Source: Oscillatoriales cyanobacterium
GTDB lineage: Bacteria; Cyanobacteriota; Cyanobacteriia; Cyanobacteriales; Laspinemataceae
Length of the DNA: 64,000 nt
Assembly (NCBI GenBank): GCA_011390955.1
Contig: JAABRM010000001.1
Coordinates: forward strand, 238,694 to 302,693
Direction: 5' to 3'
Positions 20,305 through 27,129 of the stretch are shown one piece after another (position 1 is the first letter of the stretch; each line of letters opens with the position of its first letter). Made by a program: the position numbers and the translations under genes. The notes below the pieces were generated by a model, which saw only the letters and a list, made by a program, of their open reading frames with translations, was not told where the DNA came from and made no database searches.

Positions 20305-22218
20305 TCATCTGTCCTGATGAGGGATCGATATGCAGTAGGGGCAGGGGGTAATTTGGCTAAACAGGGAGTCATTTGGCTTATATTGCGCTATTTTCAGCTC
20401 GTAGTTTGTCCTCTCTTTCAACTGCGTGTTTTGTTCTTGGAATTTTGTTTTATAAGTCTTGCTATATTCTTGTGGGTGAAGAACACTGTCTGCTATCAAC
20501 TTACAATCAGGGGTACTGTGATAATACTTTCCACCACCAAATTTAAGTTGCTGTTTATCCCAGATCAACCATACATCCTTGTCAATTAGATCTGCCAATG
20601 GTAGTTTATTCATTTTCGGGGGGTAGCCACTTTGATCAGTGCGTGCCGATCCTGGGAATTCTTGTTGTCTCGGCACAGTTAATGTTTTATAGGCTTGTTC
20701 CAGGCGTTGTGTTAGGTGATGCACTATAGTCCAATCACGTACATCCTGATCTTTATCTATCTTCGCCTCTAGCCAATGGATAAACAGCGTAACCTCGCGG
20801 CGAGGAACGATTAACCGATGGTTGAGGTATAGCATACTGGCGAGGAGTTGTGTTTTAAAGGATGGTAAGTGTGAGTCCTTGTCACCTAGAATACGCCGAT
20901 TTCCTGCATTTCCTATACCTGGCTTGTGTACAGCATACGGGTATTTGCCACCGTAGAGATAGCCTAAGTCAAAACTGCGAGACTGACCGTTATCCTTTTT
21001 GTCAAAAGCATCAGCAAGGGTGAATGGTTTACCTCTGCGACCGTATGTTTTGTCAAACATGATCAGATCGAGGATCATTAGCGATGTCACTAGGGCTGAA
21101 GGAAAGCGTGAAGCTTCCATACCAAACATCAGCGTGACTACACCTGCCAGGAAGTCTAGTTGGTGTTGTTGATAATTGGTTTGAGGCTTTTTGCCCATCG
21201 CGATCAGTAGCATATCCCTGGCTATGGCCGAATCTTGATAACCATTCATTATTATCCCAAAAGCATTAGCTATATCGGGGTATGATAAATCTAGAAACTG
21301 CCTTCTAGGAAAAAACTGTTTTAGGGTTTGAGGAAAGTATAGACGCTCTGTCTTTTCATAAGGTTTAACGTCCATTCGACTTGGCTGGGGACATAAGCCG
21401 TCATTAAGTGTCAATTGAATTGTACACGGCAATAAGGGCTCTTTTTTGTCTGGTAAGCTCAGAACTTGTTGCGGGTATGTGTTCAAGTTCCCCACGAAGT
21501 TCAACCAATTTCCCTTGCGTTCATCGCTTTTGTCGGGAGTTATCTTGATATGTTGAGAGCTGTTAGAAAAATCACTTATTGCCTCTAGCAGTTTGATATC
21601 AATAAACTGTAACAGAGTTCCTGCATGAATATTATTAATGCTTAGTTTAATTGCCTGTATTCGCGGCACTGTTTTCTGTAGTTGAGTCCGCCCAAGGATC
21701 GAGGCGAGGCGAACAGATTGACCAGCAGCCACAAGGCAACCAGCAGCATCTGCTTCATTCTCTAAAAGCGCATCTTCAACGACTGTTTCCGTAAATCCCT
21801 CAGTAAGTCCAAAACGTTGCTGTATAACATGGGCTAGCTCATGACCGAGAATTGCTAAAAATGCAGAGTTGTTAGGTTTAAACCCGCCTTTTGGGAAATA
21901 AAGATGCTCTCCATAGGTAAAAGCAACTGCACCCAAACGAGTGGCTTCATCTCCCTCATGCCAGCGAACGGTACTAAAATCTACTCCAAACAGACGCTCC
22001 ATCTGGATTCGCAACTTAGAGGGTAATGGCAATCCACCACGCAGCAGATCCATTGAGAGACAACATTCTGCACTTAGCCCCCCCTCAAGCTTTCTGTTAG
22101 TAGGAGTAAAACTACCGTAGTGGGGATTTCCTTCCGACTTAGCAGTAGCTTCCCAACATCCCACTCGTCTAACCTGAGTGTTAGATATAGTTCTGTTTGA
22201 TACTTTAACGAGATTCAT
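20305..22218 (-). CDS. DUF4157 (zincin-like HExxH) domain protein with ~450-aa uncharacterised C-terminal domain
   Basis: VDFSTVRWHEGDEATRLGAVAFTYGEHLYF...AFLAILGHELAHVIQQRFG...ENEADAAG matches the DUF4157 metallopeptidase-like module. No HIP1 site in the gene. Confidence 0.7.
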   Translation of the reverse strand: MNLVKVSNRTISNTQVRRVGCWEATAKSEGNPHYGSFTPTNRKLEGGLSAECCLSMDLLRGGLPLPSKLRIQMERLFGVDFSTVRWHEGDEATRLGAVAFTYGEHLYFPKGGFKPNNSAFLAILGHELAHVIQQRFGLTEGFTETVVEDALLENEADAAGCLVAAGQSVRLASILGRTQLQKTVPRIQAIKLSINNIHAGTLLQFIDIKLLEAISDFSNSSQHIKITPDKSDERKGNWLNFVGNLNTYPQQVLSLPDKKEPLLPCTIQLTLNDGLCPQPSRMDVKPYEKTERLYFPQTLKQFFPRRQFLDLSYPDIANAFGIIMNGYQDSAIARDMLLIAMGKKPQTNYQQHQLDFLAGVVTLMFGMEASRFPSALVTSLMILDLIMFDKTYGRRGKPFTLADAFDKKDNGQSRSFDLGYLYGGKYPYAVHKPGIGNAGNRRILGDKDSHLPSFKTQLLASMLYLNHRLIVPRREVTLFIHWLEAKIDKDQDVRDWTIVHHLTQRLEQAYKTLTVPRQQEFPGSARTDQSGYPPKMNKLPLADLIDKDVWLIWDKQQLKFGGGKYYHSTPDCKLIADSVLHPQEYSKTYKTKFQEQNTQLKERTNYELKIAQYKPNDSLFSQITPCPYCISIPHQDR

Positions 22219-22420
22219 AGCGGCTCCTTCAAACTTAATTGGAACTCAGAAGGTGCTTGAAAAGCCAATGAATGGACTGGAAAGGGCGGGTTTTGGAGTT
22301 AGGTTATGAGTGAAATCCTTGATTGCTCGTCTAAACCCGCCCCTATATCTCTTTTTGTGCTATCTGTTCAAACACACTCTGAGAAAATACTCATCTACAA
22401 CACCAGCCTGCCTTTTAGTG

Positions 22421-25015: not shown

Positions 25016-25635
25016 GGGATACCTCCGAAATAAATTTTGAATCTGATATAAGTTGATTTTGTCTCTTTAATCTAGTCTCGACAACCGAAAATAAGGAACT
25101 TAGCAAATCAATTAAATATTTCTTGTTCTCAGGTTTCTAAATGTAAGAAAAATTATGATTCCAGACATTACATTATGGAGTTATACATCTTGTGCCATTT
25201 CTTGCTTAAATTCGGCAGACAGGACTTGACTTTGGCACTGACACTCACCAAGTCGTTCAACTATTGGTGTCTCTGTCTAAACCCTCCCAGCAAGTAGCAT
25301 CCGAAGTTAGCCATTCACCATGCCGAAGTTAATGAGACTCCGTTAAATTCCTTAACTTCGGTACTGGAAAAAAGCGAGTAATATAGAAATGGCTGTGCGA
25401 ATCTACGGTAGTGAATCCTTTAGCTCTGACCTGCCTTGAGTCTGAAGTCGGGCATCGCATCTATACTTTCCGGTCAGACTGCCTTAAGAAAAATTTTTTC
25501 ATGGGTGCAATTTTTAAAATAACCACTTTTTTTGTCAATAACCCTGTAGATTTCGCGACTTAAGCCATACTTGCATCCCTTGTGCAGGTGATTACCTGTG
25601 TCTAGCTCATCTTACCGATGCCCTAGACACAGGCA

Positions 25636-27129
25636 ATGTCGCCGATTCATAAAATATCCATTGATAAATTTGAGAGGTTTTCGATGATGCCCCAACGACG
25701 GAGCCGGAGACGTGGTGTAATCCTCACGCACCAAGGATTTCAGAAACTTATAGATGCAAAAACCGCATCCGAAACTAATGAGAATTTTGATAAACGCTAT
25801 TCCCATGAAACTTTAGGTTTTCGCATGGGCTTAGATACGGATACAGTGGCAAAGGTCTTTGCTTGTGAAGTGGGGGTTGATAAAACAACCTTGAAGTATT
25901 GTTTCCGAGCCTTTAACCTGCAACTAGACCCCGATGACTATCAGTATGCCAAGCCAGTCATGGATTCACAGACAGACAACAGAGAAAATCAAACTGCAAA
26001 ATTAACAGTTCAAAATTGTGTAGATTGGGGGGAAGCTCCCGATGTTTCAGGGTTTTACGGACGCACAGAGGAACTGGCAACCCTCAACCACTGGATTTTA
26101 AACAATTCGCTTAACGGCGATAGCGGCGCCTCACGCAGTCGCCTTGTCACCCTTCTAGGTATCGAGGGAATGGGCAAAACCTACCTATCCGTGAAGTTAG
26201 CCCAACAAATTCAGCATCACTTCGAGTTTGTGATTTGGCGATCGCTCCTCCCAACTTCCCCAGTCACCGATCTCCTAGCAGACCTGATCCCCATCCTATC
26301 CAATGGCCAAGAAACGGATTTACCAGAACCACTCAACCGCCAAATTTCTCGACTAATTCATTATTTGCAACGCCACCGTTGCTTGCTGGTTTTAGACGGT
26401 GCAGACCGCATTCTCCAACACTGTGCCACCCCAAAAATGACCTGTCGAGATTGTATCTGTCTCCAGCAACCAGCCACAGGAGGATACTGTGAATTGTTTA
26501 AAAGAGTGGCAGAAGCCATTCATCAAAGTTGCTTAATCTTAACGAGTCGAGTCAAATCATACGAGTTAATTCCACTGGAAGGACAGACACGACCCGTGCG
26601 GGTATTCCCTCTTCAGGGATTACAGGTGACAGATATCCAAAAACTTTTTGGCACCAAAGGAATCTTTAGCGGAACGGCAGAGGACTGGAATCGATTAGTC
26701 GATTCCTATGCCGGAAATCCCCTGGTTCTCAACCACATTGCCACAACGATTCAACAGCTATTTAACGGGAACATTACTGAATTTTTAAAACAAAAAATTA
26801 CAGTTTTCGGTTCATTTTTTAATAGTTTAGATCGAGAATTTGAACATTTGCCCGATGTCGCTAAAGCAACGATTCAATGTATGGTTGTCAGTCATCAACC
26901 GATTACTTTTTCAAAGTTGCGAACCACTATACAATCCTCGGTTTCCTCCCCAGCACTTTTGGAAACATTAGAACTATTGCAGGCGCGATCGTGGATTGAT
27001 GCCAATGCCGGTCTGCTCTCTCTTCAACCGATGATAATGGAATATGCCAAATCTGTTATGGTTGAAAAAAAGATTGCCAAAGCTCAACCGATCGCCTTTC
27101 TGGAGCGAGAACGAAAGCTAATTCCTTGA
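25636..27129 (+). CDS. STAND NTPase (NB-ARC-type) with N-terminal HTH-like domain; no C-terminal repeat sensor
   Basis: Walker A LLGIEGMGKTYLS, then hhhhD-type LLVLDGADRI, preceded by FYGRTEELATL. N-terminal ~100 aa are HTH-like. Contains HIP1. Confidence 0.75.
   Translation: MSPIHKISIDKFERFSMMPQRRSRRRGVILTHQGFQKLIDAKTASETNENFDKRYSHETLGFRMGLDTDTVAKVFACEVGVDKTTLKYCFRAFNLQLDPDDYQYAKPVMDSQTDNRENQTAKLTVQNCVDWGEAPDVSGFYGRTEELATLNHWILNNSLNGDSGASRSRLVTLLGIEGMGKTYLSVKLAQQIQHHFEFVIWRSLLPTSPVTDLLADLIPILSNGQETDLPEPLNRQISRLIHYLQRHRCLLVLDGADRILQHCATPKMTCRDCICLQQPATGGYCELFKRVAEAIHQSCLILTSRVKSYELIPLEGQTRPVRVFPLQGLQVTDIQKLFGTKGIFSGTAEDWNRLVDSYAGNPLVLNHIATTIQQLFNGNITEFLKQKITVFGSFFNSLDREFEHLPDVAKATIQCMVVSHQPITFSKLRTTIQSSVSSPALLETLELLQARSWIDANAGLLSLQPMIMEYAKSVMVEKKIAKAQPIAFLERERKLIP

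Follow-up and report, generated by a model that had tools for sequence, protein, structure and literature searches.

What could a foreign-looking gene pair be doing in a cyanobacterium when one member carries a toxin-type peptidase module and the other belongs to a family absent from the databases searched? The question is raised by a 64,000-nucleotide stretch of an Oscillatoriales cyanobacterium (contig JAABRM010000001.1, positions 238,694 to 302,693; hereafter the window). The first-pass annotation of the window described two co-oriented genes encoding proteins of 864 and 637 amino acids (aa), and both open reading frames (ORFs) were found, on the minus strand and separated by 202 bp. We refer to the upstream one as gene A and to the downstream one, which has a DUF4157 module, as gene B. 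The pair is one case of a family rule, in which a conserved A module is combined with a swappable enzyme, and the rule extends to fungi. A and B lie, beside a divergent STAND gene, in an island that lacks the HIP1 motif:

20234..26237, no strand: HIP1-free, compositionally atypical interval (the island), delimited by the HIP1 gap, tetranucleotides and codon usage
22421..25015, minus strand: gene A, ORF of 864 aa with N-domain, coiled-coil hairpin, variable middle and C-domain
20305..22218, minus strand: gene B, 637-aa ORF, predicted PVC-metallopeptidase (DUF4157/eCIS_core, PF13699) polymorphic toxin
25636..27129, plus strand: divergent STAND NTPase of 497 aa (NB-ARC, E 3.2e-8; NACHT, E 5.5e-7)

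Gene A and its exchangeable partners

An exhaustive profile search for the gene A family identified 873 cluster representatives at E<=1e-3, counted after clustering at 50%, and 318 at E<=1e-30. The family is distributed across at least ten bacterial phyla and the Basidiomycota. A scan of one genome per species recovered 57 loci from about ten phyla, including Cyanobacteria, Bacteroidota, Gammaproteobacteria (Methylococcaceae and Teredinibacter), Rubrivivax and Actinomycetota, many Oscillospiraceae, Lachnospiraceae and Ruminococcus, as well as Treponema, Fibrobacter, Anaerolineales, Ignavibacteria and Anaeroplasmataceae. When homologues were searched for again, this time with the family alignment, the same 81 proteins came back and no further architectures were added. 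A phage or plasmid origin of gene A was considered and rejected, as tblastn gave zero matches in 50,697 phage and 72,556 plasmid records and there was no PHROG match. Tandem A paralogues occur in two Saprospiraceae loci (L051, 1938-7305, 871 and 863 aa; L060, 5054-10871, 861 and 963 aa).

What follows gene A differs widely among these genomes. A co-oriented gene lies at most 300 bp downstream in 28 of the approximately 43 loci with a readable downstream neighbour, and a dozen of these 28 genes overlap A or sit within 20 bp of it. All-against-all BLAST of the downstream partners joined only a few small groups. The partners identified include a patatin, a TPR-S protein with a patatin domain, a peptidase M23, a SIR2 protein with an nSTAND domain, a CNF1-like deamidase and a fascin-like beta-trefoil, and one partner has a weak peptidase C45-like match (PF03417). 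Five partners of about 250-300 aa form a group with a conserved 'SG.L.GCGF...HAGG' stretch, which is possibly a Cys-His active site. Other partners are PD-(D/E)xK-looking proteins, and several could be assigned to no family. A DUF4157 partner such as gene B occurs in only one of about 45 A loci.

The exchange is visible among the closest relatives of the window's gene A. The 93% identical relative (L066) retains the STAND gene, A and B. The three next-closest copies are 63-69% identical and have other neighbours: a 399-aa partner of no recognised family beside the 69% relative; a set of genes encoding a 250-aa protein, an HEFGH zincin and a 241-aa protein in the place of B beside the 66% relative (L065); and the same zincin, alone, beside the 63% relative in Actinoplanes (L008).

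Enzymes are also joined to A covalently. In proteins of 1165-2146 aa, one to three Astacin/Matrixin domains precede a complete A module, and these metzincin-A fusions belong to the Basidiomycota (Artomyces, Steccherinum, Mycena, Auriscalpium, Cristinia, Panus, Favolaschia, Pseudozyma and Flagelloscypha), one of them a 1767-aa protein of Mycena indigotica. In one metagenomic (bacterial) protein, an endolysin-type N-acetylmuramidase is fused N-terminal to the A module.

Classical polymorphic toxin systems combine a constant trafficking module with a variable toxin domain and an immunity gene. A with its partners shares the pairing of a constant module with variable ones: highly variable enzymatic domains are exchanged between close relatives, and they overlap with known toxin domains (patatin, CNF, M23, zincins and nuclease-like). 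Unlike in classical polymorphic toxins, where it forms a C-terminal tip, the variable part here is encoded downstream as a gene of its own or fused at the N-terminus. It also lacks recognisable secretion domains, RHS or filamentous repeats, a releasing peptidase and immunity genes; for A and partner, Pfam returned no trafficking or secretion domain and no immunity gene was found. Conceptually, the A-partner system is a variant of the constant-plus-variable logic of polymorphic toxins.

Six loci from Firmicutes, Fibrobacter and Bacteroidia have, beside A, homologous copies of a secreted protein, which has a signal peptide and repeats of the Big_2, MBG, Flg_new or beta-helix kind:

L024, 3120-6221: secreted repeat protein beside A
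L026, 6404-8707: secreted repeat protein beside A
L037, 3286-7647: secreted repeat protein beside A
L040, 5917-8958: secreted repeat protein beside A
L046, 724-5073: secreted repeat protein beside A
L017, 626-2371: secreted repeat protein beside A

The first-pass annotation could assign the pair to no known system, and we likewise found none for the A and B architecture in the databases searched. Term searches of Kaur et al. 2020 (PMC7159879) and of a paper on Streptomyces contractile injection system (CIS) effectors (PMC11126660) gave nothing alike, and a conserved gene A is not mentioned in two papers on extracellular CIS (eCIS; PMC8213781, PMC3482391). The gene A family and its partner rule are thus undescribed in the databases and conflict-system literature searched.

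Domain architecture of gene A and gene B

The AlphaFold2 (AF2) model of gene A (mean predicted local distance difference test, pLDDT, 75.7) consists of four parts:

24191..24988, minus strand: N-domain, aa 10-275, the most conserved part
23630..24190, minus strand: long coiled-coil hairpin, aa 276-462; its tip (aa 341-372) is mildly hydrophobic
23288..23629, minus strand: variable middle beta-domain, aa 463-576
22481..23287, minus strand: C-domain, aa 577-845, beta-rich, with two Ser/Thr-rich loops

The N-domain is modelled as alpha/beta plus helical, and the hairpin has about 90 residues per arm (helices 276-338 and 384-462). Family-wide mean identity is 59% in the N-domain, 44% in the C-domain, 32% in the coiled coil and 15% in the middle domain. 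The N- and C-domains occur together in 215 of 224 family proteins, and the spacer between them (coiled coil and middle domain) ranges from 117 to 595 aa. Nine N-domain residues are invariant across 48 diverse sequences, including P55, E62, W148, W178 and W253 (segment numbering); the invariants of the C-domain are K81, R86, W89, F90, K159, D160, PGPQ221-224, G227 and D236 (segment numbering). Among relatives with N-domains 79-84% identical, identity in the middle domain is only 37-53%, and this domain is swapped out or missing in family members of about 750 aa. Such fast evolution is the pattern expected of a specificity determinant.

Gene A has no match in Pfam, NCBIfam, PADLOC or PHROGs, and none among PDB sequences, whether searched with the single sequence, the family profile, or profiles of the N- and C-domains separately. 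When 68 domain segments from diverse members were compared with Pfam, nothing consistent emerged; the best repeated matches were DUF7078 and Trypco2, with two members each (E 0.04-0.19). The pore-forming folds that had been suggested for the 864-aa protein at first reading found no support. Comparison of the whole model, single domains not being searched, gave no fold match in the PDB and no similarity to any pore-former or translocator, including solved ClyA/Xax-type alpha-pore-forming toxins, aerolysin-type beta-pore-forming toxins, MACPF/CDC proteins and gasdermins. There is no transmembrane segment (19-residue hydropathy peaks of about 1.1-1.3 are below threshold). The two C-domain loops are rich in Ser/Thr (fractions of 0.40 and 0.37 vs 0.15 overall) and low-confidence in the AF2 model, and the idea that they form a beta-hairpin pore was rejected because their beta-amphipathic moment is below average and shows no periodicity. 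A signal peptide is absent in 222 of 223 family members.

Gene B can be placed in a known class, and its parts are as follows:

21724..22029, minus strand: zincin domain, aa 64-165, H126-E-L-A-H130-V-I-Q133 with a downstream ENEAD glutamate
20644..21651, minus strand: C-terminal domain, aa 190-525, candidate new toxin domain
20323..20541, minus strand: C-terminal tail, H567/C572...C626/C629, possible zinc ribbon

As first read from the sequence, the protein consists of an N-terminal DUF4157 module and a C-terminal part of unknown type. The module matches PF13699 (eCIS_core, formerly DUF4157) at aa 64-135 with E 2.6e-20 (72.8 bits vs a cut-off of 22), and the C-terminal part is a candidate toxin-like domain. 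The ENEAD stretch lies about 25 residues past Q133, fitting the zinc-binding signature HExxHxxQ...E that defines the PVC-metallopeptidase (Zhang et al. 2012, PMC3482391). A zincin-like fold is present in the AF2 model (mean pLDDT 71.5), and the zincin is active-looking. Most of the 87 homologues share only the DUF4157 part (aa 60-165), and the other C-termini found on them include acetyltransferase and HNH domains.

The second domain (aa 190-525) is confidently modelled and has 44 invariant residues over 21 sequences; many of its conserved residues are charged or aromatic. It has zero Pfam matches even at E<=1. It is also found alone or on other N-termini without DUF4157, in Myxococcota proteins and an Acetobacteraceae metagenome-assembled genome. 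In the tail, modelled at low pLDDT, C572 is invariant and H567, C626 and C629 are nearly so (>=90%), a pattern that may reflect zinc binding. No ORF of at least 30 aa downstream of gene B is plausible as an immunity gene. PVC/eCIS polymorphic toxins have a constant N-terminal peptidase and a variable C-terminal toxin, often without an immunity gene (PMC3482391, PMC8213781), and a strong association with eCIS has been described for DUF4157 toxins (Geller et al. 2021, PMC8213781).

Gene B resembles these toxins in its N-terminal zincin, its HExxHxxQ...E signature, a variable C-terminus that recombines independently, the lack of an adjacent immunity gene and the presence of an eCIS-type regulator nearby. 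It differs in that its C-terminal domain matches no toxin family described in Pfam and in lying downstream of the conserved gene A. A further difference is that Pfam found no CIS domain in the six ORFs scanned between 20.3 and 32.3 kb, and no CIS gene recurs in about 50 A-family loci. Two full-length relatives of gene B in other genomes have no A homologue nearby, so gene B is a mobile cargo. Given the constant peptidase with a variable C-terminus, the missing immunity ORF and the relatives elsewhere, we regard gene B as a further member of the known PVC/eCIS class that carries a probably new toxin domain.

The STAND gene and the borders of the island

The divergent NTPase with an NB-ARC domain that had been read beside the pair is present. 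Its product also matches AAA_22 and AAA_16, and a weak PDB match is an NLR. The start is more likely M16 at 25681, giving 481 aa as called in locus L006, and the N-terminus (MMPQRR/MNPQKG) is kept in L066. Pfam matches nothing in the N-terminal 137 aa, the helix-turn-helix of the first reading included, and shows no sensor repeats. The intergenic region contains the following elements:

25016..25245, minus strand: conserved upstream region of gene A (promoter/leader), about 92% identical to L066
25085..25361, no strand: CCGAA(G/T)TTAAG repeats (CCGAAGTTAAG motif) in both orientations, candidate operator sites
25591..25637, plus strand: palindrome ACCTGTGTCTAG...CTAGACACAGG immediately preceding the STAND coding region, with 21-nt arms, 86% complementary

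Six copies of the CCGAAGTTAAG repeat with at most two mismatches lie within 277 bp, and three of the window's four matches with at most one mismatch are at 25205-25361. The matching intergenic region of L066 has four such copies at <=1 mismatch, with zero elsewhere on that contig. Over the 230 bp adjoining gene A, conservation with L066 is about 92%, and the STAND-proximal half has diverged, palindrome included. The strong palindrome pointed out at the NB-ARC start was thus found, and we rejected it as a conserved operator because it is missing from the 93% relative. An RNA element in the gene A leader was also rejected (folding z = +0.55, with Rfam silent there). The N-terminal region of the STAND protein (window 25636-25960) is only 64% identical to L066 vs 93-94% for genes A and B, and there is an apparent recombination breakpoint about 230 bp upstream of gene A.

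Regulators recur beside A in other genomes. At the position of the window's STAND gene, L065 has a divergent SARP-type protein (Trans_reg_C, BTAD and NB-ARC). In four Nostocaceae loci a co-oriented ECF-type sigma factor is encoded directly upstream of A, LytTR-type kinase/regulator pairs accompany A homologues in Firmicutes, and a kinase with a GerE regulator does so in Myroides. Dedicated adjacent regulators of this kind are typical of inducible toxin and bacteriocin loci. For eCIS toxin operons, proximity to GerE/BTAD regulators has been reported (PMC8213781).

The window's STAND protein is similar to STAND regulators of the SARP/AfsR and MalT types in its NB-ARC/NACHT NTPase, its N-terminal non-catalytic region and its divergence from a presumed target operon; the L065 counterpart has an OmpR-type DNA-binding domain and BTAD, and the window's intergenic region has repeated motifs. 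It differs from them in having no Pfam DNA-binding domain, no C-terminal sensor repeats and a length of only about 480 aa. By this comparison, transcription regulation dedicated to the locus is its most likely role, ahead of immune sensing, and it may act on the A-B operon by binding the CCGAAGTTAAG repeats.

The composition of the interval indicates a foreign origin. The window contains 83 HIP1 (GCGATCGC) sites vs 0.6 expected, and the longest gap between them, 6.0 kb from 20233 to 26238, has zero sites inside. The HIP1-free island therefore extends beyond the approximate limits of 20300 and 25600 claimed originally; between 20234 and 29682 there is only a single site. The Poisson probability of a 6.0-kb gap is 1.2e-4 at the background of 1.5 HIP1 per kb, and a longest gap this large has P = 0.025 for 83 uniformly placed sites. 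Tetranucleotide correlation with the window is 0.71-0.73 at 20-26 kb vs about 0.9-0.96 for most of the window. In synonymous codon usage, the three most deviant of the window's 23 long ORFs are gene B (z -2.86), gene A (z -2.63) and a WD40/TPR ORF at 51012-53624 (z = -2.62); the STAND gene is intermediate (-1.46). The interval had also been described as AT-rich, which it is not: GC at 20-25 kb is 0.43-0.46, equal to the window at large.

Phylogenetic placement points in the same direction. Two of the three copies that are 63-69% identical to the window's gene A are on contigs of unlike GC (55%, and 72% on a genuine Actinoplanes contig), and the third, L067, has 42% GC, like the window. Other cyanobacterial copies are 38-53% identical to it, and the window's gene A therefore came from a different lineage, in agreement with the compositional evidence for recent acquisition. 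The horizontal acquisition proposed at first reading is thus supported by the HIP1 gap, the tetranucleotide signature, the codon usage and the placement of gene A, and a horizontally acquired three-gene module (STAND, A and B) is the best explanation of the interval. An exact look-up of the flanking malic enzyme, as an empty-site synteny test, found only 3.7-kb contigs that end before the island.

A tandem array borders the island as described, its unit now measured as 51 bp:

19231..20050, plus strand: tandem array, 51-bp unit, 16.2 copies

Every unit contains HIP1 or a near-HIP1 sequence. Eight units match CCGAAATTAAA on the minus strand, two mismatches away from the CCGAAGTTAAG repeats of the A-STAND intergenic region; the likeness may have arisen by chance or may reflect a common binding motif. 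The array is separated from the malic enzyme gene by a MazF/PemK-type toxin-antitoxin remnant at 18493-19079, which consists of an antitoxin-like ORF of 74 aa and, after it, a PemK-like toxin split into pieces of 41 and 50 aa. Just past the STAND gene, at 27341-28013, is an intact toxin-antitoxin pair of PIN (129 aa) and DUF2281 (93 aa) proteins, and the island is therefore flanked on both sides by toxin-antitoxin modules. An 827-aa protein with AAA_35, GUN4 and Macro domains is encoded at 29843-32326; its GUN4 part matches PADLOC PD-T4-6 (E 8.7e-37), and its architecture is of a cyanobacterial conflict-system type.

Dense short tandem repeats (TTGG x11, GGGGAAC x5, GAGAAGA x4.6, CCTGTTC x13.9 and ACCAACAACCA x3.7) occupy 28092-28456, directly upstream of a psbA-like (D1) ORF at 28540-29712 whose codon usage deviates somewhat (z -1.5) and whose C-terminus is unusual. 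A second HIP1-free atypical stretch at 49454-54075 (GC up to 0.56, tetranucleotide correlation 0.68) contains the WD40/TPR ORF mentioned above, on the minus strand, which encodes an 870-aa repeat protein. Elsewhere in the window are NsiR1 small RNA (63851-63909, 62 bits) and a fluoride riboswitch (39372-39468, 49.5 bits). NsiR1 is characteristic of heterocyst-forming cyanobacteria, and by this marker the window would probably derive from Nostocales and not from Oscillatoriales.

Possible roles of the A-partner system

We tentatively favour, with less than even confidence, an offensive, binary-toxin-like role for gene A and its exchangeable enzyme, in which A would provide access or targeting and the partner the damage. 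In a widespread effector system of two parts, gene A would be the one that stays constant and has no enzymatic activity. Its coiled-coil hairpin and fast-evolving middle domain would hold the conserved N- and C-domains apart, and the variable middle domain would set specificity. The partner enzyme, encoded directly downstream or fused to the N-terminus of A, would here be gene B; much as in a binary toxin, A would target it and give it access to the membrane or envelope, and the divergent NB-ARC protein, acting through the CCGAAGTTAAG repeats, would turn on the A-B operon. Among the closest known systems are binary (AB-type) toxins and two-component alpha-pore-forming toxins (XaxAB/YaxAB, AhlB/SmhB). 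We infer that A works with an enzyme partner because a constant module is combined with an exchangeable enzyme, at operon-like spacing, with fusions in two kingdoms, inducible regulators and a recurrent secreted surface protein. An offensive rather than suicidal role is favoured because toxin and bacteriocin loci have regulators like these, and because CNF1-like, fascin-like and DUF4157 partners are typical toxins against other organisms.

Several observations weigh against this proposal. The near-universal lack of a signal peptide (222 of 223 members) and the lack of a transmembrane segment leave no export route that could be named, and gene A is structurally similar to neither pore-formers nor translocators. 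No common adaptor domain was noticed on reading the partner sequences, so a physical A-partner complex is unsupported. SIR2-STAND, TPR-S-patatin and PD-(D/E)xK-looking partners are more typical of abortive-infection effectors, and several partners are peptidoglycan hydrolases without signal peptides, which would fit self-lysis too. About one-third of the loci have no co-oriented downstream gene, and given the 202-bp gap co-transcription of A and B in the window is only presumed.

Some of these points would be accommodated if A acted inside the producing cell, as an intracellular executioner or scaffold, for example a protease-activated membrane disruptor like gasdermin. The neighbouring enzyme would then activate A or kill alongside it, the STAND protein would be the sensor, and the outcome would be abortive infection or programmed cell death in a multicellular cyanobacterium. 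We consider such a suicide or immunity module rather unlikely. In its favour, the family is cytoplasmic, and the SIR2-nSTAND, TPR-S-patatin and nuclease-like partners fit. Four unrelated peptidase kinds are tied to A (DUF4157, HEFGH zincin, metzincin fusions and M23), the spread over bacteria and fungi is like that of gasdermins and NLR-linked death domains, an HTH-AAA_35 STAND gene adjoins the Anabaena PCC 7108 copy of A, and the island lies amid conflict genes (the PIN-DUF2281 pair, the broken PemK, and the AAA_35-GUN4-Macro protein with its PD-T4-6 match). In its bacterial and fungal distribution, cytoplasmic location and link to peptidases by adjacency or fusion, A is comparable to gasdermin-protease systems; no fold similarity to gasdermins was detected, and A differs from them in having partners beyond proteases, in being three times larger and in its coiled coil. 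Against this reading, PADLOC-DB 2.0 was blank for A and B and gave only a marginal IetA match for the STAND protein (E 0.014), the fold of A matched neither gasdermin nor MACPF nor any other pore-former, its hairpin gave no amphipathic signal, and the window's STAND protein has no sensor repeats. The regulators adjacent to A elsewhere are transcription factors (ECF sigma, LytTR, GerE and SARP) rather than typical fast sensors, and CNF1-like, fascin-like and DUF4157 toxins are typically aimed at other organisms.

A still less probable reading treats A and B as unrelated neighbours, with B an orphan cargo of a CIS encoded elsewhere that landed in a recombination-prone region, and with the variable genes after A homologues marking an insertion hot spot rather than a function. 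DUF4157 toxins are eCIS-tied (PMC8213781) and often orphan, relatives of B occur without A, and just one of about 45 A loci has such a partner. The 202-bp gap, the toxin-antitoxin remnants and tandem array around the island, and the downstream genes clearly unrelated to A in some loci (a transposase fragment, an aminotransferase and a peroxiredoxin) are consistent with chance association. It is harder to reconcile with the many partners that overlap A or lie within 20 bp, the independent N-terminal enzyme fusions in fungi and one bacterium, the retention of the A, B and STAND trio with the upstream region in the 93% relative, and the same atypical codon usage in A and B. Least probable, in our view, is regulated self-lysis or release, in which A would perturb the cytoplasmic membrane from inside, like a holin, so that signal-less wall- or membrane-degrading partners reach their substrate and free cell contents, DNA or toxins. 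The M23 peptidase, the patatin and a small protein whose sequence suggests a cell-wall amidase are signal-less partners of this kind, the muramidase fusion matches phage endolysin families, and A, itself without a secretion signal, is adjoined by inducible regulators. Against such a role, A has no transmembrane helix, there are no phage or plasmid copies and no PHROG match, many of the partners are something other than lytic enzymes (CNF1-like, SIR2, fascin-like and the DUF4157 toxin), and the fungal fusions bear metzincins rather than wall hydrolases.

With a joint offensive role as the preferred reading, the locus matters at several levels. It reveals a large, well-conserved gene family without an entry in Pfam, NCBIfam, PHROGs, PADLOC or PDB, supplies a new candidate toxin domain in the C-terminal part of gene B, and offers a compact, testable and putative regulator-operator-operon unit in a cyanobacterium. 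A constant module paired with an exchangeable destructive enzyme is the signature of conflict systems, from which toxins, delivery devices and immune mechanisms new to science have repeatedly been uncovered. It is conceivable, if quite improbable, that the A module represents a new fold family of peptidase-partnered effectors in bacteria and basidiomycetes, either a gasdermin-like cell-death executioner activated by the metallopeptidase next to it or fused to it, or a self-contained device that takes arbitrary enzymes into target cells and works without a secretion system. If A does deliver or activate arbitrary enzymes without a secretion machine, this would be a new principle and possibly a tool for protein delivery.

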